Source of the DNA: Nitrospinota bacterium | GTDB taxonomy: Bacteria; Nitrospinota_A; UBA7883; JACRLM01 | Length of the DNA stretch: 64,000 nt | NCBI GenBank assembly: GCA_016208975.1 | Contig: JACQXA010000004.1 | Location: forward strand, 681,015 to 745,014 | Direction: 5' to 3' | Part shown: positions 1,435 through 47,392 of the stretch, one piece after another | How positions within the stretch are numbered: position 1 is the first letter of the stretch | Layout: each line of letters opens with the position of its first letter | Notes under the pieces: generated by a model | The model's input: the letters and a program-made list of their open reading frames with translations, nothing else | Databases searched by the model: none | What the model was told of the DNA's origin: nothing | Translations under genes and position numbers: made by a program

Positions 1435-3663
1435 TCAGAGCTTTTTCCTGGCGTAGGCTGGTTGTTCGCCGCCCAGGATGTCCCCGATACCCAGAAGAGT
1501 TATGGTAAACATTATCCTCCTTTCGTCCTCGGTGTAGGAAGAGCCGTCGGCGGCGGTCTTGGTAAGCTGGCGCTGGTCCAGGTTGATGGCCAGCCCCCAG
1601 CAATCTTCCCGGAACCGGGCGCGCACAAGGCTGTTGGTGGTCTTGGCGTTGGCCTCGTCGTACACCCAGGAGAAATCCAGCGACAGATTCCATGGAAGTT
1701 TTACCTCCAGATAAGCGGTGTCCCAGGTGGAGTCCTGCCCATCCTTGCCGCCCCATTTGTAAATCCTGTCAAGAGCGATATTGGCCACGTCCCAAAGCTT
1801 CAATCCAGCTTCAAGCGTGGAAGTTTCCCAGAACTTGTCATAATGGTTGTAGGTTGTGCTGTAATTGAAAAGAAGCCAATCCGCCGGGCGTGAGCGGAAC
1901 TCCAGCTGTAATGGGGCCAGCGGCCTTTTTTCGGTTTCCGGGCTTTCCGTCCTGTTGCTTTCGATAATGTCGAACGGCTGGGTGGCCACGAACCGGGCCA
2001 GGCTTACAGTTCTGCTGGATTCAGGCGATAAAACATCTTTTGCCAAAAGGTCGTTGGCTATTTGCAGGGCTACCGCGTTTGTGGGCGGGGCGCTGTCCAC
2101 AGTGTCTATCACATACACATTCTGCCGGTTTTCGCCGTCCATCTCATAACCGGGGATATAGTTCCACACCAGCTTCGGTGTGATGACGTGCTTTAATGCC
2201 GGGCGTTCGGGGGTTCCCGTTTCGAATATCCTGAAAAACTTCGGGCCGGTGACGGTGAAGGACGTCTGGTAATACTGGCGGGTGAAGCTTTCGTCCACCG
2301 GGTTTCCGGATGTGTCCTGCCCCCGGGAATACCATGTGGCCCGATACCATGCCGCCGCCTCCAGTGACAAAAACGGCGATATGGAAATCGGCATGCTTAT
2401 GGACGGGTAGAAATCGGCCCTCTCCACGTCAAAGGTGGTCCTGTATTCATCCAGCCCGTTCTCCGTGCGAAACCCGGTGTAGCTGGATTCCAGCGACCAG
2501 TATAACGGCGTCCCCTTTATGCTTTCTTTCTGGTTTATCAACCGCAACTCCGGGGTTTTTCTCAAGGTCTGGGCGTTGGAAGGGTCTAACGCTATCTGCT
2601 CCCTGGCCATGAGCGTCACCGTGCGGGTGGGCCATGACCTGGAGAATGTCACGTAACTGTCGTTATAGTTTCTGGAGCGGTCGGTGAGACTTTCGGAATA
2701 CTGCCTGCTTATGCTCTCCTCGCTCTCCTTGTTTATATGGAACACGTTCCTGATATTCCAGGGAAGGTTGTGGCGGTGGTCAAAAAGGACTCTCCACAGG
2801 TTCCTGTCGGTGGGCTGGTCCGGATCCGTCTCCTGAATGTATTCCCCGTTGAACTGCCCGGAAAAATCCCTGAAGATGTACCTGTATTCCGCCCCGTACT
2901 TGTTCCCCGCCTCACCCAGGTAATGATGGGTCAAAGTGGCGTCCATGTTGTCGGCGATGGCCCAGAAGAATTTGTTCTCCACCTGGAAACCCAGATTGTC
3001 CGAATAAGCCGGAGCGGGCATTAAAAATCCCGTCGCGCGCTTGTTTTTCACCGGAACCGGCAAGTAGGGCAAATAAAATACAGGGACACCGGCGGCATGG
3101 AACACCGGGTTGGTCAAATGGGCGTATCCGTCCACGGTGACATCCGCGTAGCTGGACTCTATCTCCCACTGTGGATCCTCACATTTGCAGGTTGTAAGCC
3201 CCGCTTCCCTGGCCACGTACCTGTCTTCCTCCACGCGCTGTATCTTCGCCCCGCGCAGGTTGTAGAGGTTGTCGAACTTTCCGCTGGCGCGATAGAGCGT
3301 GCCAAGCCCTGTTATGGTGTTAAAATCCGCCCGCTCCGCCTCCAGCCGGCTTTTCGGGTCCTGATACACCGCGGAGCCTTCCACCCTGCCGTCGCCGGTG
3401 TCCGGATTGTAAAAAATCACGTCACCGCTCAAGGTCTTGTCGCCATAAGACACCTGGGCGTTATCGTAGGCGGCCGTCTCGCCGGATTGGCTGTCTTTGT
3501 AAATCTGACCCGCGGTTATGGAGACAGGCGGCGCCGAAGGCGCGGACGCGGCTGGCGCCCCGGCGGGCGGCGCCGGTTGGGCGTATGCAATTCCGGCTAC
3601 GGATATGGCCAGCATGGCCGCTATTTGGCCGAAGCGGATTAATTTGAGAATAGTACTGTTCAC
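1435..3663 (-). CDS. lptD: LPS-assembly outer membrane protein LptD
   Basis: ~750 aa; signal peptide (ILKLIRFGQIAAMLAISVAGIAYA), LptD-like segment KRATGFLMPAPAYSDNLGF...AEYRYIF, beta-barrel-like C-terminus. Start set at in-frame GTG 3663; ATG at 3615 or ORF start 3714 are alternatives. Confidence 0.8.
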   Translation of the reverse strand: MNSTILKLIRFGQIAAMLAISVAGIAYAQPAPPAGAPAASAPSAPPVSITAGQIYKDSQSGETAAYDNAQVSYGDKTLSGDVIFYNPDTGDGRVEGSAVYQDPKSRLEAERADFNTITGLGTLYRASGKFDNLYNLRGAKIQRVEEDRYVAREAGLTTCKCEDPQWEIESSYADVTVDGYAHLTNPVFHAAGVPVFYLPYLPVPVKNKRATGFLMPAPAYSDNLGFQVENKFFWAIADNMDATLTHHYLGEAGNKYGAEYRYIFRDFSGQFNGEYIQETDPDQPTDRNLWRVLFDHRHNLPWNIRNVFHINKESEESISRQYSESLTDRSRNYNDSYVTFSRSWPTRTVTLMAREQIALDPSNAQTLRKTPELRLINQKESIKGTPLYWSLESSYTGFRTENGLDEYRTTFDVERADFYPSISMPISISPFLSLEAAAWYRATWYSRGQDTSGNPVDESFTRQYYQTSFTVTGPKFFRIFETGTPERPALKHVITPKLVWNYIPGYEMDGENRQNVYVIDTVDSAPPTNAVALQIANDLLAKDVLSPESSRTVSLARFVATQPFDIIESNRTESPETEKRPLAPLQLEFRSRPADWLLFNYSTTYNHYDKFWETSTLEAGLKLWDVANIALDRIYKWGGKDGQDSTWDTAYLEVKLPWNLSLDFSWVYDEANAKTTNSLVRARFREDCWGLAINLDQRQLTKTAADGSSYTEDERRIMFTITLLGIGDILGGEQPAYARKKL

Positions 3664-27523: not shown

Positions 27524-29830
27524 TCAGTCCACGATTTTCGGCGTTATGAAAATCAGCAGTTCCTGGTTGTTCTTTGTCGTGCCGTCGTTCTTGAACAGCC
27601 ATCCCAACAGCGGTATCCTGCCCAGCCCGGGAACCATGGCCTGGGACGTGTTGGTGCTATCCTCGAAAAGACCGCCCAGGACCGCCGTCTCCCCATCTGC
27701 CACCAGCACTTCCGTCTTGGCCATCCTGGTCTCTATCGGGGGCGGACTGCCGGCCAGCGGCCTGTCCTTGTTAACCTGCAGGGTAAGCCTCATGTGCTTG
27801 TCCGGAGTCACATGGGGGGTGACTTTCAGCGAAAGCACCGCTTTCTTAAACTCGGTCTTGGTGCCTTCGGCCGAAGTGGTCTGGTAAGGAACTTCCTGGC
27901 CCGACTCTATCACCGCCTCTTTGTTGTTCATGGTGGTGATCTTCGGGTTGGAGATTATAACCGCCTCGCTGTTCTGCTCCAGGGCCATAAGCCTGGCGTC
28001 CAAAAGCGCCGTGCCGTTTACGGAACCAAGCGTAAGCCCGATGCCTGAAAGCGCCCCGCCGGCCCCGGCCGTTATCGGGAAGTTCACCGCCGAGCCGCCG
28101 CCGCCGGACGTAATGTTCGGCGAAGACACGCCAGTGCCGCCGGTTACCCCTATGGTGTTGGGGAACAGCGCTCCGGTGGTGTTGTTATAATAGCCGCCCC
28201 ACACTATGCCCAGGTTCTTCACCTTGTCGTGGGTGGCGGAAACAATCTTGGCCTCTATGAGAACCTGGGTTTCCTTCTTGTCCAGCTTCTCTATAAGGCT
28301 GGCCATCTCGGCCAGTTTCTCCTTGGTGTCCTTTACGATGATGCTGTTGGTGCGCTCGTTTATCTCCACCGAGCCCCGCTCGCTCTTCATCGAGTCCAGG
28401 TTCTTCTTGAGCTTGTCAGCGGCCTCGTAGTTCACCTCGAAAACCCGGGTGTACAGGGGCACAATCTTGGCCTCCGACTCCTTGGTCTTCACGGCGGTCT
28501 CCTTCTCCTTGGAGATCTCCTCGGTGGTGGCCACCCGGATTATGTTGCCCTCCTGGATCTTGTCCAGCCCGTTATTCTTGAGTATCACGTCCAGCGCCTG
28601 GTCCCACGGAACGTTCTTCAGCTTCATGGTCACCTGGCCCTTCACCTTCTCGGAGGTGATTATGTTGAGCCCCGCCACGTCGGCAATGATCCGCAGGATG
28701 TTATGGATGTCGGCCTTCTGGAAATCCAGCGAGATGCGCGCCCCGGCGTAAATGGCATCCTGCGCGCCTATCATTTCTTTCTCGGCCTCGGCGGCGGCTT
28801 TAGCCTTGGTGTCGGATACCTCCGTAGCCATGGCCAGCACCGTTTCCTCACCCATGTCCAAAAGGATCCTGTTGCCCTGGGTGGCTATGTTGTAAAGGGT
28901 CATCTCCTCCAGGTTAACCACAACCTTGGCTATGGGCGACTTGCCAGAGCGGAACTGGAACGCCGCGACGTTCTTGATTATGGAGCCTTCCGCGCTCACG
29001 CTTATCAACCGCTCGTCTTTTGCGTCTATTATCGTGTTGGGCAGGTCCACCGTAAGCCTGTTCATGTTGGCCCTGCTCAAAAGCTCATAGGCTGGCTCCG
29101 GCCTGGCCATGGTGATCTCCACCCGGCCCAGCTTTTTGTCCAGCTGGATGAACTTTACGTCCACGACCCGGTTTTGCCCTTCTTTAAGGGGAGTTTCAGC
29201 GACCAGCATGGTAGCGGGCGCCGCCTGTTCAGCGGCCATTACAGGCGCGGGCTCCACCACGGCGGGCTTAGCCTCTGGCTCGGCGGCAGGCGCTACCGCC
29301 GGCTCCGGGGCCGCCACTGGCTCTGCCTGCGCGGCCATCACCGGCGCAGGGGACTCCGGGGCTGGCACAGGGGCCTGTTCGGCCTCCATGGCTCCGGCCT
29401 TGGTTATAAGTATCCTCAAAGCGCCGGGATCGGAGCTGTCCACCGAGAAACTCACGTCATTGTTAAGCTCTATCTCCAGCCGCGAGTCGTTGGACTTGGC
29501 GAAGTAATAGGGCTTCACGTTCTTTACAAGCTCATGATTCACCGGCACGGTCGCCTGGAACATGGACATATCCACGTTGGACATGTCCACGATCAGCCTG
29601 GGCGGATCCGCAAGCTTGAACGCGGTGTGGGTTATGGGTCCGTCGGCCTCGAGCCTCACCTCCACCCGGTCCTCAGCCCCGGTTGTGGACAGGTCCTTAA
29701 CAGAGGTTGACCCGGCCACGGCCGTTTGGCTTTCCGTGGACTTGGTTAACGCCTTCTCACTGGCGCATGCCGCGACAGCCAGTGGCAAGGCTAGGAAGAT
29801 ATACACCAACCTCCTGGGGAACGTAATCAC
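27524..29830 (-). CDS. pilQ: Type IV pilus secretin PilQ
   Basis: Secretin C-domain (NPKITTMNNKEAVIESGQEVPY, VPGLGRIPLLGWLF, LLIFITPKIV) with Ala/Pro-rich N-terminal region. Confidence 0.85.
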   Translation of the reverse strand: MITFPRRLVYIFLALPLAVAACASEKALTKSTESQTAVAGSTSVKDLSTTGAEDRVEVRLEADGPITHTAFKLADPPRLIVDMSNVDMSMFQATVPVNHELVKNVKPYYFAKSNDSRLEIELNNDVSFSVDSSDPGALRILITKAGAMEAEQAPVPAPESPAPVMAAQAEPVAAPEPAVAPAAEPEAKPAVVEPAPVMAAEQAAPATMLVAETPLKEGQNRVVDVKFIQLDKKLGRVEITMARPEPAYELLSRANMNRLTVDLPNTIIDAKDERLISVSAEGSIIKNVAAFQFRSGKSPIAKVVVNLEEMTLYNIATQGNRILLDMGEETVLAMATEVSDTKAKAAAEAEKEMIGAQDAIYAGARISLDFQKADIHNILRIIADVAGLNIITSEKVKGQVTMKLKNVPWDQALDVILKNNGLDKIQEGNIIRVATTEEISKEKETAVKTKESEAKIVPLYTRVFEVNYEAADKLKKNLDSMKSERGSVEINERTNSIIVKDTKEKLAEMASLIEKLDKKETQVLIEAKIVSATHDKVKNLGIVWGGYYNNTTGALFPNTIGVTGGTGVSSPNITSGGGGSAVNFPITAGAGGALSGIGLTLGSVNGTALLDARLMALEQNSEAVIISNPKITTMNNKEAVIESGQEVPYQTTSAEGTKTEFKKAVLSLKVTPHVTPDKHMRLTLQVNKDRPLAGSPPPIETRMAKTEVLVADGETAVLGGLFEDSTNTSQAMVPGLGRIPLLGWLFKNDGTTKNNQELLIFITPKIVD

Positions 29831-31617: not shown

Positions 31618-32265
31618 CTATTCCTTCTTCTCCTTCTTGGCCCCGTTCTTGGCCGAGGGCTTAGAGGCCGCCTTGGCCGCTTCCTCAGCCTCCTTCCGCT
31701 TTCTCTCCTCCTCCTGAATCTTCAACCCGATGGCGGTCATCGCCTGCACGGTGAATTTCATGAGGGTCTCATTACCGATCTTGGCCTGCGTGATCTCCTT
31801 GAGCTCCACGTTGGCGAACTGGTCCGACTCCTCCATGCCCTTCATGAGCCTGGCCACGGCCGTGTTCGCGAACGAATAACCCTGGACGGTCACCTGGCCC
31901 CGCAGGTCGTTGAGATTTGTCAGCCATATCTCCGGAGGGAGTATGACGTTGAGGTTGTCCAGGTAAGGCGTGGGGCCGCGCTTGAACTCCACCAGCATGT
32001 TGATGGCCCCCAGGATGGACGATAACTGCTTCTCCTGGACCTCCATCTTCCTGACTTCTTCTCTTATCTTCTTCTGGGTCTCCAGCTCCTTCTTGGAGCT
32101 TTCGATCTTCTCGGAGGTGTCGGTTATCTGGCTGGCCTTGGCCTGCCACCAGAACCCGCACAGCACGAAAGCGCCCGCGATGATCATCAGCCCCATCACA
32201 AGCTGTTGCTGTATTAACAGACGGTCTTTAGCGTGGCGGTCCGCGAGAAGGTTGATCCTGATCAT
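31618..32265 (-). CDS. pilN: Pilus assembly protein PilN
   Basis: Start MIRINLL, TM helix, coiled coil; ATG overlaps pilM stop. Confidence 0.7.
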   Translation of the reverse strand: MIRINLLADRHAKDRLLIQQQLVMGLMIIAGAFVLCGFWWQAKASQITDTSEKIESSKKELETQKKIREEVRKMEVQEKQLSSILGAINMLVEFKRGPTPYLDNLNVILPPEIWLTNLNDLRGQVTVQGYSFANTAVARLMKGMEESDQFANVELKEITQAKIGNETLMKFTVQAMTAIGLKIQEEERKRKEAEEAAKAASKPSAKNGAKKEKKE

Positions 32266-33359
32266 TTGTCGCCCAGCCTTCTGATGGCAAGCCCAACGGC
32301 CACAACGGCCATCGGCGCGATTTTCTCGATGTATTCCGGATCGAAGACCTTGGTGTTCACCTTTATGTTCCGGAAGGGGTTTATCAGCTCGCAGGAAAGC
32401 CCCAGCTCCTGGCCCATAATGGTCTCCACCCCTTCGATCATGGCGGTGCCGCCGCAAACGCGCACCCGCCTTACACGGCTCTCCGAGGTGCGGTGGTACA
32501 TGTCGAAAGTTTTCTTCAGCTCGTCGCAGATCGCGGCCAAACCGGCCTTTAAGTGGGGTATCACCTGCTCACGGCGGAGGCCCCCCTCAAACACGCCCAG
32601 CTTGTACTTTTCCGCTTCCTTAAAGGGCACGTTCATGTTCTTCTGGATCGTCTCGGATATCTTGTTGCCCCCCATGGGAATGTCCCTGGTGTAGGCGGTT
32701 ATGCCGTTCTCTATTATGTTCACGTTGGTGATTGAGGCGCCTATGTTCACCAGCGCCACGGTGTCGTCGGCGTCCAGCCCATACGCCGCCTCGTAACCGT
32801 TCTCCAGGGCGAACACGTCCAGGTCCGCCACCGACGGCTTGAGCCCAGCGTTCTTTAAAATTTCCGCCTGCTCGCCCAGCACATCCTTTTTCACGGCCAC
32901 AAGAAGCACGTCCATCTGCCGGTCTTCATTCTCCGGCAGTTTCTGCCCCTTCTTGGGGATGGGACCCTCGTGCTTGACTATCTGGAAATCTACATTGACC
33001 TCGTCTATGTCGAAAGGAATGTATTGCTCGGCCTCCTGCTGGATGGATTCGGCCAGGTCGTCTTCGCTCATAAGTGGCACGGTGATCTTCTTTATGATCA
33101 CCGACTGGCCGGAAACGGAGAAAGCGCAGTTCTTGATGGAAGAAGGCACCTTCTCGGCGGCCATGAGGTTTTTCAGGGTGTCGGATACGGCTCCGGGGTT
33201 CTCCACCTCCCGCTCCACGATCGCATCGGGAGGCAAGGGGATCATGCCGAAATTAGCGAGTTCGTAACCGCGCTTGGTCTTTTTGACTAGCGCAAGCTTT
33301 ATGGAGTAGGAACCTATGTCCACCCCAAGACAGGGCCTGTTGGTCAATGCGAATAACAC
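32262..33359 (-). CDS. pilM: Type IV pilus assembly ATPase-like protein PilM
   Basis: Actin-like fold signature (CLGVDIGSYSIKLALV). Confidence 0.85.
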   Translation of the reverse strand: MLFALTNRPCLGVDIGSYSIKLALVKKTKRGYELANFGMIPLPPDAIVEREVENPGAVSDTLKNLMAAEKVPSSIKNCAFSVSGQSVIIKKITVPLMSEDDLAESIQQEAEQYIPFDIDEVNVDFQIVKHEGPIPKKGQKLPENEDRQMDVLLVAVKKDVLGEQAEILKNAGLKPSVADLDVFALENGYEAAYGLDADDTVALVNIGASITNVNIIENGITAYTRDIPMGGNKISETIQKNMNVPFKEAEKYKLGVFEGGLRREQVIPHLKAGLAAICDELKKTFDMYHRTSESRVRRVRVCGGTAMIEGVETIMGQELGLSCELINPFRNIKVNTKVFDPEYIEKIAPMAVVAVGLAIRRLGDK

Positions 33360-33387: not shown

Positions 33388-33618
33388 TCAGTCGTCGCCA
33401 AAAACCCCGACGCGGTCGTCCAGATCCAGCCCCAGGGCGATTAGAATCTTCCGCTTGGTGTCCAACCTGCAAAAGTACCCTTTCTCCACCCGATCGATGG
33501 TCTGAACCGAAAGCCCGGTTTTCCGCGCCAGCTCAGCTTTACTCATCATCTTGGACTCACGGATCTCCCTAACCCTGTTCGGCTTCAGCTCTTCTCGCCC
33601 ACCGCCAGCTTGCGACAT
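33388..33618 (-). CDS. XRE-family helix-turn-helix transcriptional regulator
   Basis: 76 aa; MSKAELARKTGLSVQTIDRVEKG HTH; 29 nt upstream of pilM on the same strand. Confidence 0.65.
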   Translation of the reverse strand: MSQAGGGREELKPNRVREIRESKMMSKAELARKTGLSVQTIDRVEKGYFCRLDTKRKILIALGLDLDDRVGVFGDD

Positions 33619-33619
33619 C

Positions 33620-33870
33620 CGTGACCCCTCCAGAAATATAGTCTCTAATTACTATAAAAAACCATTTCCGGAGAACTTATCACGAAAGAAACTTAATTGT
33701 CAATAATTATTTAAAATTTGGGGTTAATTAATTGTATATTACATTATATTAATATTCTATTTTAAATTATATGAAATAAAATCAACTAATTTAAACCCAT
33801 AAATAGATAATTACCAATTAATACACATGCCATTATATGATAATTAGCGTCAATTTTATGACACTACCTC
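33620..33870. other. Strongly AT-rich non-coding block
   Basis: ~250 bp of A/T-dominated sequence with repeated ttaatt/tatatta units, in sharp contrast to flanking GC-rich genes. Confidence 0.7.
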
Positions 33871-34359
33871 CTATAAGCGCTCTATCCGGGCGGACATACT
33901 TGTCAAATCCACCAACGCCACAGTGGAATCCTTTTTTATCCATCCGCAACATTCTCCCGGGTTGACTAGAAGTGATCCGTTTTTCTTTTGAACCACAGCC
34001 TCATGGGTATGGCCAAAAACGATGAGGTCCGCATTACCTTCTGAAAGGTCATGCGGAATTCGCGCAGGCTCGTGAAACATGGATACCCGTTTGCCTGAAA
34101 GCTCCAGACTATGGGGCCTGTCGTTCAGCGTCCAGCCGTCCGCGCCGAACATTCTGGAGAGCCCGTCTTTCTCACCATCGTTGTTGCCGAATACGGCGTG
34201 AAGCGGGGATTTTAGATTTTTGAAGGGGATAAGGGCGAATGGAGCCACAAAATCGCCACAATGGAGGACAGCGCCAACTCCCGCTTCATTGAAAAAGCTC
34301 ACGGCCTTTTCGATTTGCGGAATCCGGTCATGCGTATCTGAAACCACACCAATAAGCAT
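33871..34359 (-). CDS. Metallophosphoesterase, YfcE/MJ0936 family
   Basis: SDTHD, GDFV, GNND, GHTH metal-binding motifs. Confidence 0.8.
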   Translation of the reverse strand: MLIGVVSDTHDRIPQIEKAVSFFNEAGVGAVLHCGDFVAPFALIPFKNLKSPLHAVFGNNDGEKDGLSRMFGADGWTLNDRPHSLELSGKRVSMFHEPARIPHDLSEGNADLIVFGHTHEAVVQKKNGSLLVNPGECCGWIKKDSTVALVDLTSMSARIERL

Positions 34360-34626: not shown

Positions 34627-34703
<77 letters not shown>

Positions 34704-34847
34704 GTTCATCCTGGCCGAGCGCAGAAAACCTGTTCATCCCCTCTCAACCAGCCTCTCGCACGGGCCAGCGTGAACAATCTACGCCGGTGGCCGGATCAAA
34801 CATATATAATCCATTTCATCTTCCATTTTTCCCGATGGGGGTATGTT

Positions 34848-35825
34848 GTGCGAAGGATACTGGCTCTGGCGGCGCTAACGGTTTTTTCCATAATCGCCAT
34901 CACGTGCGGTGGCGGCTCATCAACAAGCGGCTCATCCGCGGGAAACGAATTGGCTGAAAGCTGTTCGTCAACCGCAACCTCCCGCGCATATCTCATGGCG
35001 TTCCATGTTTGCGACACTTCAACAGCCGTCTGTTCAAACCCGGCAAACCATTCAATAAGGCTAGCCGGTTCCGATGACGGATTGAACTGGACGTTGCTAC
35101 AGGATTTCGCCCCCCTCGCCGGTTCCGTGCCGGACATTGTTGAATATGACGGGGCCCTTTACATCTACCACACCGGCTTGGAGCATTACGCCAGCGTGAA
35201 CGCCTGCTTGCAGGTGACTGAAAGCGGCTCGGTGGCCATAAGCGGGGAAAGCGGCGGATTTGTGGATACTTCACTGATTTTGGTGGACGGCGCGTTGACC
35301 ATGTTCTATCTGCCAGGAATTATCGGGATGGATCCAGCCGGTTGCCAGGACTATCCATGCGTGAAAGAGATACATTCAGCCCGCAGTGTGAACGGTTCGG
35401 CATCTTCTTTCGCCCAGATCCCCGGGTCCAGGGCTTCTGCCAATCTGACGGGCGGGGTTTTTTCCGACCCTGATATTGTCAGTAGATCCAATGGCAGTTA
35501 CCTGCTTTATGTCTCCAGCGGCCAGAGCGTTCTGGGCTATTCATCCACCGATATTGACGGATCGTTCACCGGAGGCGTGACCATCAGCAACGGCGCGGGA
35601 GGCGTTCCCTCTGCCATCGAAGCGCCGGACGGCGCAATCTGGCTGTATGTCACCACAACGGTTGGCGGAGTGGAGGTTATCCGGCGCGCTTTACTGGCGG
35701 ACGACCTTACTCCCGCTTCATGGGTGGATTTTGTAACTGTAATGAATGGCTCCGCCCTTGGCCTCGGCGCCAGCGTGAGCGTGTCCAGCCCTTCAATCAT
35801 TCCCTGGCCATCAAGCTGGAAATAA
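34848..35825 (+). CDS. Hypothetical lipoprotein
   Basis: In-frame GTG start giving signal peptide (V)RRILALAALTVFSIIAITCGG with lipobox; the longer ORF from 34659 would overlap the tRNA. Confidence 0.55.
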   Translation: MRRILALAALTVFSIIAITCGGGSSTSGSSAGNELAESCSSTATSRAYLMAFHVCDTSTAVCSNPANHSIRLAGSDDGLNWTLLQDFAPLAGSVPDIVEYDGALYIYHTGLEHYASVNACLQVTESGSVAISGESGGFVDTSLILVDGALTMFYLPGIIGMDPAGCQDYPCVKEIHSARSVNGSASSFAQIPGSRASANLTGGVFSDPDIVSRSNGSYLLYVSSGQSVLGYSSTDIDGSFTGGVTISNGAGGVPSAIEAPDGAIWLYVTTTVGGVEVIRRALLADDLTPASWVDFVTVMNGSALGLGASVSVSSPSIIPWPSSWK

Positions 35826-41752: not shown

Positions 41753-42362
41753 TTTTTTAATCTCCCGTTTGAATGAACACCCCTGGATTTATCCATCATC
41801 ATTGCGCCGGGCGCAAAAACTCTCAAGGGTTTTTTGAGCCACGCCGATAAACAACGTAATAGGGCCGGAAATCCCCCGCGAAGGAATGTGGGGCGGCAAG
41901 ATTACCAAGGAGGGTAACATCATGGATACTGTGAATATTTTTGGGAGCGACCACAAGGGGGCCATCTTAAGGGCCTATCCGATGAAGAAACGATTGCCAC
42001 AGCTGGGCGCGGGAATGAATCTTTTTGATAAACCAGCGACAGCCGCCGGAAATTCCCGCCTCCGGGTACAGCCGGGTGGAGGTTTTGTGGCTTTAACAGC
42101 CTGATTTAACGTCGCATATCGTTCTTCAGGCCCGCCAGTTCCATTGGGGCGGGCCTGTATTCTTATTTAACGGGGGAACAACTCGCCACTAAATGTATAA
42201 ATCATGTTATTACAATATGTTATCACCTATTTAGGCTGTCCGCTTATTTTTGGAAGGCAGTTTTAACTTGTTCCAAATGTCTCGTTTCACGCATATCTGG
42301 CATTTGACTGGCGCTTGTTTATTAGTTTAAAATATGCATTTTTAAATAGTGGAGGTACGGCG

Positions 42363-42551
42363 ATGAAGAAGAAAATCGGTAAGGCGCCAACCTGTAAACA
42401 TTGCGGTGGGGCCATGATAGACAGGTTCGATGAGCTAACCTGCGTCATGTGCGGCAGGATTTCTAGCCACTCGTGTGAAAACTGTTTGAAATTAGAGGAG
42501 GAAAGGCCGGCATCCGCAAAGCGGGGCGGTAAGAGGGCCAGCGCGGCCTAA
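42363..42551 (+). CDS. Small zinc-ribbon protein
   Basis: CKHCGG ... CVMCG pairs; SD ggagg before ATG. Confidence 0.4.
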   Translation: MKKKIGKAPTCKHCGGAMIDRFDELTCVMCGRISSHSCENCLKLEEERPASAKRGGKRASAA

Positions 42552-42642
42552 TTTGTATCTCATTGAATTTTATACGGCGGGGGGTTACACAAAACCTTCC
42601 GCCGTATTTTTTTAGCCGCGATAATTCCCCCTTCACATTACA

Positions 42643-44974: not shown

Positions 44975-46084
44975 TCACCAGCGCAAACTACCGCAAGGAG
45001 TTCTCTTGAACAAGGAACGCCAGAGATGGTCTTTTTCTGGTGGGGCGCCAATCTTGACGATCTCGATAAATCCCTTTGCCTGACCTTTTTTTGCGTTTTC
45101 AGTTATAGGCCCTGCATAGAAAGTTGAATCCTCAAGCTTGGTTATTGGTTCGGCCTTCCGGCCATCAATATCCCCGTATCCAAATGCAAGAATATTTACT
45201 TCATTCGGGCGTTTTGCGATGTAGCGAGACAGTTCAAGGGCTGTGGTGCTCGATATATAATTGGCGAGAACATCTTGGAGCAACCAGAATGTTTTACCGT
45301 TCCATGCAATGCCCACCTGAGATTTTACGATAAGTTGGCTTACCATCCGCGCCCATACCTGACGGTAGTTGATGCCTGGTCCATTATGGCTTGAAGGATC
45401 AATTATTGCGTCCTCGCAAGCCATCGGGATTTGGGTCCTTTTCTTCTTGTCGCCACCAGAGGTGCTTGAGGTCATAATCTCGACAATGGTTATTGGATCC
45501 GTGGGGAAATCTTCAATCCAATGCTCGCCATTTCGAATGGCTATCGTATAACCGTTTGCCTCTGCAAGTGGCAGTGTAGCTCGTTCTCCTTTCCCAATCA
45601 GTCCTGCTACCTCGGAAAGCCTCTTCCGGCCTGACCCCGCAATAATATAGTCAAACGAATAATCAAATGACTTTGCTTCATCATCGTCATTTCTCGTCTC
45701 AATCTTCATCTTCACTTCTGACCATGCGCGATATGTTCTGCCTGAGTCAAGTTGAGCATACTTTGCGAGTTGTGTCCGCACATGCGTTTGGTAGTCGGTC
45801 TGTGTTTGCGCGCGAAGTGATAAAAGCCGACGCGGGCAAACTATCCAAGGCTGTTCTCCATCACGAAGTCTAAGTGAACAAACACCGGATTGCACAATAA
45901 CCTTACCGGGGAAAAATTTCCGCAAATTACGGCTTTTGCGCAAATCTAATGCTGAAAGGTAACGGTTTCCACCACCATCACACTCAGCATCCATAAAAGG
46001 ACACCATGCTTTCGCTCGGTTTTCTGCGGCTTCCTCGTTCCAGCAATCAAGCCGGTATCCGTACAATTCAAATATCTTGCTCAT
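44975..46084 (-). CDS. Type II restriction endonuclease, putatively NotI-like
   Basis: Overlaps and follows the C5 methyltransferase gene; N-terminal four-Cys pattern WCPF...C...GVCSL...WIVCPRRL recalled as resembling the NotI metal-binding module; lower GC than surroundings. Confidence 0.6.
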   Translation of the reverse strand: MSKIFELYGYRLDCWNEEAAENRAKAWCPFMDAECDGGGNRYLSALDLRKSRNLRKFFPGKVIVQSGVCSLRLRDGEQPWIVCPRRLLSLRAQTQTDYQTHVRTQLAKYAQLDSGRTYRAWSEVKMKIETRNDDDEAKSFDYSFDYIIAGSGRKRLSEVAGLIGKGERATLPLAEANGYTIAIRNGEHWIEDFPTDPITIVEIMTSSTSGGDKKKRTQIPMACEDAIIDPSSHNGPGINYRQVWARMVSQLIVKSQVGIAWNGKTFWLLQDVLANYISSTTALELSRYIAKRPNEVNILAFGYGDIDGRKAEPITKLEDSTFYAGPITENAKKGQAKGFIEIVKIGAPPEKDHLWRSLFKRTPCGSLRW

Positions 46085-47189
46085 CCAAGAACCTCATTAT
46101 CTGTTGCCCAAGAATGCGAGCCAATGGAGGGGGAACGGAATTTGCCACCTGTCTATGTTGATCGAGATTTCGCACAGAACCCGTTCTGGATCTTATAGGA
46201 CCTTTAAGAATATAGTCGTCAGGATAACCATGTATCCTCATGTATTCGCGTGGAGTTAGATATCGGTTTTCAGTAGGATGATAGAATATCTCTCCGCATC
46301 GAAGAGTGTTTGCGGGTCGCTTGCGATGGAGGCGAAGATATTTCGTTGTGTCCTTAGGGGACAAACCGCACCGAAGTTCTTCACCTAGATGTGTTTGTGC
46401 GGAAAGATAAGATCCTTCTGGAACTTGAGCGATTCGTTCTCGATCTCTTGGTGGAGTCACATCAACATGACTATCAAGCCTTTCATAAACAGTTTTCCCC
46501 TGTATTTTGGAATCTGGTTTCCCAAGACCTTTGATTGCTTTTCCAGTTCCAACGTACGGTTGATAATGAAAAAGTCCATTGCATTCTTCCGCTGGAGCAT
46601 GGGTTCTCTCGGGAAAAACAAAACCATTACGTCCCCGCGTTGCAATGACAAAGAGCCGCTCTCGCAGTTGCGGAACCCCGAAATCAGACGCAAGAATGGC
46701 ACGCCATTTTGGAGTATAATTAATTTTCTCCAGTTCACTTAGAAAATTTTCAAAGACCTCACCTCGGCGATTCGTGTGACCTTTGGATGACAATAGCCCC
46801 TTGACTTGCTCAAGTAAAATCACTTTGGGTTGAATGGACTTTGCAAAGCGAATGATCTCAAAAAGTAGAGGACCCCGCTCGTCACTTAAACCAAGTTGCT
46901 TCCCAGCCAATGAAAACGACTGACATGGTGGACCACCGAATAGAATATCCAATTCACCTTTCTTAATGTTAAGTTCTTTCAGTAGTGATTGGGGATCGAC
47001 GTTGCGGATATCCTTTTGAATTATTCGTGAATTGTAATTGTTATTTTCCGCATTGGCCCGCAATGTAGCGCAACAATGTTCATCAATTTCCAGTTCAGCC
47101 AATACTTCAAAACCTGCATCTCTGATGCCAATATCCATACCGCCAGCCCCAGAAAAGAGACTTATTGATTTCCTGATGCTAGAATTCAT
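46068..47189 (-). CDS. DNA (cytosine-5)-methyltransferase
   Basis: Motif I FSGAGG, motif IV GGPPCQ, LLEQV (ENV-like); start at MNSSIRK. Confidence 0.85.
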   Translation of the reverse strand: MNSSIRKSISLFSGAGGMDIGIRDAGFEVLAELEIDEHCCATLRANAENNNYNSRIIQKDIRNVDPQSLLKELNIKKGELDILFGGPPCQSFSLAGKQLGLSDERGPLLFEIIRFAKSIQPKVILLEQVKGLLSSKGHTNRRGEVFENFLSELEKINYTPKWRAILASDFGVPQLRERLFVIATRGRNGFVFPERTHAPAEECNGLFHYQPYVGTGKAIKGLGKPDSKIQGKTVYERLDSHVDVTPPRDRERIAQVPEGSYLSAQTHLGEELRCGLSPKDTTKYLRLHRKRPANTLRCGEIFYHPTENRYLTPREYMRIHGYPDDYILKGPIRSRTGSVRNLDQHRQVANSVPPPLARILGQQIMRFLDEQDI

Positions 47190-47392
47190 CGTGATAGGTG
47201 ATAACGGTAGTAGTATTAGGGCGCGTTTTTTAAGCATTTTACACAAGAATTGTTATTATACCACCATCCAATTCAGACAATACGCGATAATTACCGACAC
47301 GTAATCGGAATCGTTTCATCAGCAACCTTTCGCGCCAAGGTGATTAAACCAAGTTTTTTACTTTGCCGAGTTTACGCCACCTTGCTAATCCA

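Follow-up and report, generated by a model that had tools for sequence, protein, structure and literature searches.

The 64,000-nucleotide stretch of Nitrospinota DNA analyzed here, which we call the window, contains an extremely AT-rich block at the head of an operon made up of a small XRE-family regulator gene followed by pilMNOPQ, the genes of the pilus assembly platform. Comparison of this block with its counterparts in other genomes makes it probable that it combines a conserved σ70-type promoter with a phased, protein-binding array of TAATT boxes that lies largely on one face of the helix. The block belongs to an ordinary class, that of promoter-operator regions, but it takes an unusual form: it is extremely AT-rich within a GC-rich genome and carries a pentamer phased over ∼200 bp. 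Judging from the sequences, this architecture appears to be conserved, together with its XRE-pilMNOPQ unit, in Nitrospinota and Myxococcota at least.

A maximal AT-segment scan delimited the block as follows.

33634-33859, minus strand: AT-rich block, the whole control region, from the phosphoesterase stop to the XRE leader

These 226 bp are 19.9% G+C, compared with 56.3% for the window overall, and the slightly wider span marked in the initial annotation (33620-33870) is 24.3% GC. The block is the GC minimum of the window at sizes of 100, 150, 200, 250, and 300 bp, which confirms the earlier observation of an extreme shift in composition. The lowest 200-bp segment (33646-33845) is 19.0% GC, with 34% for the next-lowest and 56.3 ± 5.8% across the window as a whole. 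Since the 26 other intergenic gaps of the window are 38 to 47% GC, ∼20 points higher, the block is not typical of local intergenic DNA, and no mutational bias explains a GC content of 20%. The second AT-richest spot, an intergenic area within 42158-42552, lacks TAATT periodicity. Because the block is 100% identical across three independently assembled runs (SRR12113405, SRR12113399, and SRR12113402), an assembly artifact is excluded. The repeat units ttaatt and tatatta, which had been noted earlier, are present and barely enriched (TTAATT, 3 vs 0.79 expected, P = 0.045; TATATTA, 2 vs 0.34 expected, P = 0.046; both marginal). The clearly enriched unit is instead the pentamer TAATT/AATTA, with 15 occurrences vs 4.5 ± 2.3 expected (3.3-fold, P = 0.0005).

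The following promoter features were located in or next to the block.

33698-33703, minus strand: -35 hexamer TTGACA, with TTGAC invariant in 14 aligned relatives
33674-33682, minus strand: extended -10 element, consisting of TG (33681-33682), one base, and TAAGTT (33674-33679), with an 18-bp spacer
33665-33670, minus strand: predicted transcription start zone, 5 to 9 nt past the -10, giving a leader of ∼50 nt
33625-33631, minus strand: Shine-Dalgarno sequence GGAGGGG, 6 nt before the XRE ATG
33832-33837, minus strand: distal TATAAT-like box after AATTA

The sixth base of the -35 hexamer is A in 12 of the 14 relatives and T in the remaining two (L007 and L008), and TTGAC was also found in all 17 loci that we anchored on this hexamer. 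The -10 hexamer of the relatives reads TAAAGT, TATAGT, or TAAACT, 17 bp past the -35. We assigned the promoter of the window on the basis of this conservation rather than on a consensus score. The near-invariant TTGAC(A) and a -10 at a fixed distance in relatives provide comparative support for the suggestion that the block holds the promoter of XRE-pilMNOPQ, which would be of the σ70 type. In addition, the block appears to be the sole promoter space available to the operon, since no open reading frame (ORF), Rfam match, or tRNA lies within it and the gap between XRE and pilM is just 28 bp. The distal TATAAT-like box, found at the same distance from the -35 in several relatives (including L004), lacks an acceptable -35 partner and may serve as a second promoter or as a binding site. 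Two other σ70-like pairs were observed in the block, both on the minus strand (TTTAAA-18-TATAAT at 33766-33795 and GTGTCA-16-TATCAT at 33837-33864). Because their -35 parts are not conserved in relatives, these are probably chance matches of AT-rich DNA, and spurious or secondary starts from them are possible. By eye, we also considered a σ54 promoter at TGGCAT (∼33825). It was rejected, as it has no GC at -12 and is not conserved in L001, the closest relative.

Directly upstream of the -35, we found a series of short AT-only boxes spaced by about one helical turn.

33704-33751, minus strand: five-box phased array abutting the -35, accompanied by an in-phase AATTA at 33694-33698
33704-33709, minus strand: box 1, TAATTA
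33712-33719, minus strand: box 2, AAATTTTA
33724-33731, minus strand: box 3, TTAATTAA
33735-33741, minus strand: box 4, TAATATA
33746-33751, minus strand: box 5, TAATAT
33664-33778, minus strand: conserved core, comprising array and core promoter, from a profile built from relatives
33779-33859, minus strand: distal half, AT-rich and phased (period 11.0), with sequence conserved no further than composition
33786-33792, minus strand: distal in-phase box AAATTAG
33807-33813, minus strand: distal in-phase box TAATTAT
33850-33856, minus strand: distal in-phase box AAATTGA

In the window, TAAT/AATT starts recur with a period of 10.5 bp over positions -160 to +45 (z = 8.7), a value reached by 3 of 1000 shuffles when all periods are allowed. 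Each half of the block is periodic on its own, at 10.25 and 11.0 bp. With the strand-symmetric set TAAT/AATT/ATTA, the best period was 11.5 bp (z = 13.6, 0 of 1000 shuffles), with z = 6.4 at 10.5 bp. No periodicity was detected in the seven other testable AT-rich stretches of the window (P = 0.46-0.99); two more held too few motifs for the test. Other AT-rich spots, 42158-42357 and 46940-47281 among them, are unrelated to the block and not periodic. When 17 Nitrospinota loci were superimposed, the boxes stacked at -38, -27, -16, -6, +5, +14, and +35 relative to the -35 box, with a summed z of 17 to 19 at 10.25 to 10.5 bp. As the 17 sequences are related, this z describes a conserved arrangement and not independent events. 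The strongest of these boxes are 21 bp apart (-27, -6, +14, and +35), and in most relatives the array continues through the promoter spacer and the start site. Recurrence about once per helical turn implies that many boxes lie on one side of the helix.

Taking +1 near 33667, the box centers fall near -40, -49, -60, -71, and -82, on the face of the helix used by the C-terminal domain of the RNA polymerase α subunit (α-CTD) and by upstream activators (class I/UP positions). This raises the alternative of an extended upstream-promoter (UP) element read by RNA polymerase only, in which minor-groove contacts of the α-CTD and upstream wrapping would make a strong promoter that needs no dedicated regulator. 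Several features fit such an element: the AT-rich DNA adjoins a perfect -35, the boxes occupy the polymerase-contacting face, the boxes with centers near -40 and -49 come close to where UP subsites are known, at about -42 and -52, and the weak -10 of the window would gain from such help. Yet each polymerase carries just two α-CTDs, whereas the phasing extends over ∼200 bp and, in most relatives, into the spacer and start (+14, +35). The match to the UP consensus is also partial. When NNAAAWWTWTTTTNNNAAANNN was compared with positions -59 to -38, the region was AT-rich and about half of the positions matched, with CCCC at approximately -52 to -55. Finally, the high-GC lineages described below preserve the bases themselves and not A/T content alone (T-A-A-W-T-T-A, 60-91% per position). 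We judge a polymerase-only element unlikely.

The promoter-array reading draws much of its strength from conservation. A search with PilM yielded 16 loci, all from Nitrospinota metagenome-assembled genomes (two of them labeled Nitrospirae), with 40 to 76% PilM identity. An XRE gene directly precedes pilM in all 16, and the phosphoesterase precedes XRE in 13. The spacer between phosphoesterase and XRE measures 234 to 290 bp and is 18 to 38% GC in genomes of 38 to 62% GC; it was the local GC minimum in 14 of 14 genomes. Counting three further loci found through XRE (L017-L019), the AT-rich block sits at the same site in 19 loci and is the local GC minimum in every one. Alignments, made with MAFFT or ungapped and anchored on the -35, revealed a conserved upstream stretch, GAAATAnTAAT...TGTAATA...TAATT...AAAT...TAATTnTTGACA. 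An nhmmer profile of the core found one copy per locus, which in the window corresponds to 33664-33778 on the minus strand (E = 4.5e-17), and no second copy in the 64 kb. The profile also recovered the core in L017-L019 and in two loci outside its training set, L002 (E = 1e-11) and L004 (E = 2e-17). In these two loci (2590-3366 and 2642-3457, respectively), a hisA-like gene in divergent orientation takes the upstream place of the phosphoesterase, and the block, the core, and the distal TATAAT-like box are all kept.

The 55 bp upstream of the -35 are 75 to 78% identical to five of seven relatives and 62 to 75% identical to the other two, compared with 57 to 61% for shuffles (z mostly ∼4-4.7). 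The next 40 bp upstream are conserved only in closer relatives, and the distal 70 bp and the leader only in composition. Four-fold degenerate sites of pilM, in comparison, are 46% identical to the closest relative (56/123). Because the identity of the array exceeds that of both shuffles and these near-saturated synonymous sites, the array is under purifying selection, with a distal half that keeps its composition and phasing rather than its sequence.

The same comparison, proposed as a check in the initial annotation, settles another suggestion made there, that the block is a remnant of foreign DNA. A foreign or mobile remnant, or a neutral AT-rich spacer, could account for the sharp compositional break, the tRNA-Pro gene 770 bp away, and a weak 25-nt inverted repeat (72% complementary) at the block ends. 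It is contradicted by the fact that all 19 close Nitrospinota loci have the block at this same site, by a length that is conserved wherever the phosphoesterase lies upstream, and by sequence conservation well above that of synonymous sites. Moreover, no mobility genes occur among the window genes around the locus, no second copy exists in the window, and repeats of the mobile-element type, tandem or inverted, amounted to weak AT-driven matches, with a single 27-bp TATAT run reported by TRF. The element is old, single-copy, and tied to the XRE-pilM unit even where a different gene lies upstream, which refutes the foreign-DNA reading; we regard this whole class of explanation as extremely improbable.

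A similar arrangement is seen beyond Nitrospinota. A scan with an XRE alignment yielded 80 metagenome loci (L017-L096), most with pilM directly after the XRE gene, and among these the XRE-pilM pair is widespread outside Nitrospinota (e.g. L029 at 1288-1701, L037, L028, and L033). In high-GC lineages, the XRE protein carries a low-complexity N-terminal extension of 40 to 90 residues, rich in Ala, Pro, Glu, and Lys, before a near-invariant helix-turn-helix (HTH) core. Relatives of the L029 XRE protein are named Polyangiales, Myxococcales, Myxococcota, or Deltaproteobacteria, and the assignment of the high-GC group to Myxococcota rests on the relatives of this one locus. In the high-GC loci, the promoter lies 200 to 330 bp upstream of the HTH-coding part, with a short AT-rich patch abutting TTGAC(C/G/A) and a TAnnnT 17 to 18 bp past it. 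Across 17 nonredundant high-GC loci, the A/T fraction has a period of 10.5 to 11 bp (z = 16.8 and 15.2), and the pooled box logo reads T60 A79 A85 W T91 T66 A65 (TAAWTTA) with 4-bp GC-rich linkers.

We also weighed physical explanations against protein recognition. In a purely physical element, intrinsic curvature or easy melting of the DNA would by itself make the promoter respond to temperature or supercoiling, and no specific binder would be involved. In its favor, the block has the least stable duplex of the window (-1.06 vs -1.488 ± 0.068 kcal per step over 200 bp, using nearest-neighbor energies of SantaLucia 1998), and in 16 of the 17 high-GC loci strong curvature is predicted at the homologous position. 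Curvature was calculated with the Bolshoy-Trifonov wedge model, which passed a control with phased A6 tracts. The intrinsic curvature proposed in the initial annotation was not supported by this check: the predicted ratio of end-to-end distance to contour length was 0.893 for the whole spacer (shuffles, 0.881 ± 0.078) and 0.979 for -75 to +10 (shuffles, 0.964 ± 0.024). Only 3 of 17 Nitrospinota loci were curved, with the window and 14 of 17 relatives equal to shuffles. The block holds just five A/T tracts of at least four bases, which are unphased, and TpA steps are not enriched. Thus, the lineages share box position and identity and not static curvature, which favors recognition by a protein and makes a purely physical element improbable.

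Alternatively, the block could encode an RNA (a small RNA or a structured leader) or a short peptide. A transcript crossing it could start from the distal TATAAT box (33832-33837), and the leader contains the palindrome TATAGT-N8-ACTATA (33635-33659, minus strand), just upstream of the Shine-Dalgarno sequence. Against this, Rfam gave no match in the block at the gathering score or at E ≤ 1, RNAalifold found zero consensus pairs in the 14-sequence alignment, and no ORF of at least 20 amino acids or tRNA lies inside the block. The leader fold is no more stable than shuffles (z = -0.08), and its hairpin is absent from L001. An RNA or peptide function is, in our view, highly unlikely.

The earlier proposal of a nucleoid-protein platform is plausible insofar as helically phased TAATT boxes suggest protein binding; a nucleoid protein is no likelier as the binder than a dedicated regulator such as XRE. 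The block could be a platform or silencing site for a nucleoid protein (H-NS/MvaT/Lsr2-like, Fis, or IHF), or the target of a regulator encoded elsewhere. Response regulators of the OmpR/PhoB or LytTR type bind tandem repeats 10 to 11 or 21 bp apart. Consistent with such binders are the extreme AT content and low duplex stability, the abundance of promoter-like hexamers (6 vs 2.2 expected), the tandem boxes at 10.5 to 11 bp beside the -35, reminiscent of OmpR sites at ompF/ompC, and the 21-bp spacing of the strongest boxes. Several results run the other way. The IHF consensus WATCAANNNNTTR was not matched upstream of the promoter in the 17 loci scanned, its one match lying downstream, in L009, and the window has no response-regulator gene beside the operon. 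The element occurs once in 64 kb and, in contrast to generic targets of nucleoid proteins, is conserved in its specific sequence and with a single operon. We consider this alternative distinctly unlikely.

Under the promoter-array reading, transcription would start from TTGACA-18 bp-TGnTAAGTT, ∼50 nt before the XRE ATG. Immediately upstream of the -35 lie the five conserved boxes, and phasing through ∼200 bp would place many boxes on one helix side, where a protein oligomer could bind cooperatively along one face and set promoter output, whether upward or downward. The prime candidate for this protein is the product of the first gene, XRE, which would then autoregulate the pilus assembly-platform genes. 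The XRE DNA-binding core (IRESKMMSKAELARKTGLSVQTIDRVEKG..CRLDTKRKIL) hardly varies, with 26 invariant columns in 30 homologs, and was always found together with the array. As the protein passed no curated NCBIfam cut-off, it bears generic HTH labels only. Its AlphaFold model is a five-helix Cro/C1 domain (mean pLDDT, the model's own confidence score, 82.5), and the nearest solved folds are HipB, C.BclI, C.AhdI, 434 Cro and repressor, CylR2, DdrO, and SinR. Such Cro/C1 proteins are small dimers that typically bind adjacent operator sites in their own or target promoters. The best sequence match among solved structures was CylR2 (E = 0.008, with 39% identity in the fold alignment), a 66-amino acid repressor that sits on the cytolysin promoter (PMC3709268). 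Because the nearest folds are small dimers on operator arrays, autoregulation by XRE is the most economical hypothesis. Granted the promoter-array reading, XRE may be the binder, an assignment in which our confidence falls a little short of even.

A broader version is that XRE and the phased TAATT/TAAWTTA array form an ancient autoregulatory module common to Nitrospinota and Myxococcota, and probably to other former "delta" lineages, in which a Cro-type protein would polymerize along one face over 50 to 200 bp and set PilMNOPQ dosage. On the comparative evidence, we regard this as possible and rather doubtful. Our literature searches for an XRE gene upstream of pilM found no paper. MXAN_5777, considered as a candidate, was rejected, as it is pilR2. 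The cloning primers for GSU2033, a transcription factor of Geobacter sulfurreducens, encode an N terminus MTTVKLS and a C terminus ...DAVFID (PMC2817479). This C terminus resembles the DRxxVF tail of the XRE family studied here. GSU2033 is presumably located next to pilM, and the XRE-pilM module may also occur in Desulfobacterota.

A number of observations weigh against a promoter with a dedicated XRE-bound array. The -10 of the window, TAAGTT, is weak, matching three of six consensus positions (including A2 and T6) plus the TG, and a generic consensus scan missed this promoter while giving six other, chance-like sites vs 2.2 expected. The best period varies with the motif set, from 10.25 to 11.5 bp. 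The boxes are 6 to 7 bp long and AT-only, which is atypical of a 14- to 20-bp Cro-type dyad operator. Each box is a mini-palindrome of 6 to 7 bp, and although neighbors can be read as dyads (TAAATTA-N4-TAATTTA in L037), a consistent 14- to 20-bp dyad is absent. Most relatives (L003, L005, and L009 among them) keep boxes at +14 and +35 that are missing from L001 and from the window (33674-33697 and 33660-33672), so any repression logic may differ there, and the loss may be a lineage-specific regulatory change. The co-occurrence of XRE with the array would be expected of any promoter element of this operon and singles out no binder. Lastly, the position matrix from the high-GC loci misses the exact register of the window, its best matches (33701, 33712, and 33690) being 2 bp off and spaced 11 bp apart. 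Hence, the likeness across phyla is one of architecture and not proven homology. A search for covariation between the recognition helix (Q39 vs L) and the boxes likewise gave no clean pattern, because marine Nitrospinaceae retain Q alongside AATTTA boxes.

Known systems resemble parts of this arrangement. Operator arrays of Cro/C1 proteins (the C-boxes of C.AhdI/C.BclI, HipB O1-O4 at hipBA, and 434/lambda OR1-OR3) likewise have a small HTH gene (∼70 amino acids) first and adjacent sites by or over the -35 and -10 on one helical face, which invites cooperative binding. Their operators, however, are dyads of 14 to 20 bp, two to four per promoter, whereas here AT-only boxes of 6 to 7 bp recur at each approximate helical turn, with at least five conserved and ∼200 bp of phasing. 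Those arrays also regulate toxin, restriction enzyme, or phage genes, while here the target would be pilus machinery, with XRE only a candidate binder. OmpR/PhoB arrays (ompF F1-F3 and pho boxes) share AT-rich tandem boxes of 10 to 11 bp on one face, from approximately -100 to -35. They differ in that no response regulator is found at our locus, that a perfect -35 is present here and replaced by pho boxes there, and that the boxes here are small palindromes (TAAWTTA) rather than directional repeats. The UP element of rrnB P1 is likewise an AT-rich tract immediately before a consensus -35, and the box centers here fall near its subsites; it covers ∼20 bp compared with ∼200 bp here, where a specific pentamer is phased ahead of a single operon in more than one phylum and the agreement with the UP consensus is partial. 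The CylR2/cytolysin PL promoter of Enterococcus faecalis offers a small repressor on its target promoter, a protein to which XRE bears a weak match. CylR2 binds one inverted-repeat site and is partnered by a membrane protein, CylR1; no such partner was seen here.

A literature search found no paper describing this form of element. To our knowledge, little is known about the control of pilMNOPQ assembly-platform transcription, and for Nitrospinota, the main marine nitrite oxidizers, we know of nothing. If borne out, the XRE-array module would give the type IV pilus machine a dedicated regulator that has not been described before. The locus is a compact and testable module, pairing a small HTH protein with a sharply bounded cis-array in at least two phyla. 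It also shows that islands of extreme AT content in GC-rich genomes need not be foreign and can instead be regulatory elements that are old and under selection.

The genes around the block are as described in the initial annotation, namely an XRE regulator and a metallophosphoesterase on its flanks and pilMNOPQ downstream.

33871-34359, minus strand: YfcE-family metallophosphoesterase (Metallophos_2), stop codon TAG at 33871-33873
33388-33618, minus strand: XRE/Cro-C1-type HTH_3 gene, 76 amino acids, first gene of the operon and candidate array binder, ATG at 33616-33618
32262-33359, minus strand: pilM, 28 bp past the XRE stop, presumed to be controlled by the block
downstream of pilM, minus strand: pilN, pilO, pilP, and then the pilQ secretin gene (27524-29830), presumed to be controlled as well, with aroB next
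34627-34703, plus strand: tRNA-Pro(GGG), 770 bp from the block

A 388-amino acid ORF at 34659-35825 (plus strand) belongs to no Pfam family. Its listed start falls inside the tRNA-Pro gene, so the real start must be further along. Farther away, a C-5 cytosine DNA methyltransferase gene (46068-47246, minus strand; PF00145, E = 1.3e-64) contains low-GC stretches, with ∼36 to 38% GC at 46940-47260, and is followed by a 369-amino acid ORF (44975-46084, minus strand) without a Pfam match. Together, they form a candidate restriction-modification island (44975-47246). The AT-rich intergenic spot within 42158-42552 lies upstream of a small ORF (∼42364-42552) that carries CxxC...CxxC motifs and probably encodes a zinc-ribbon protein.

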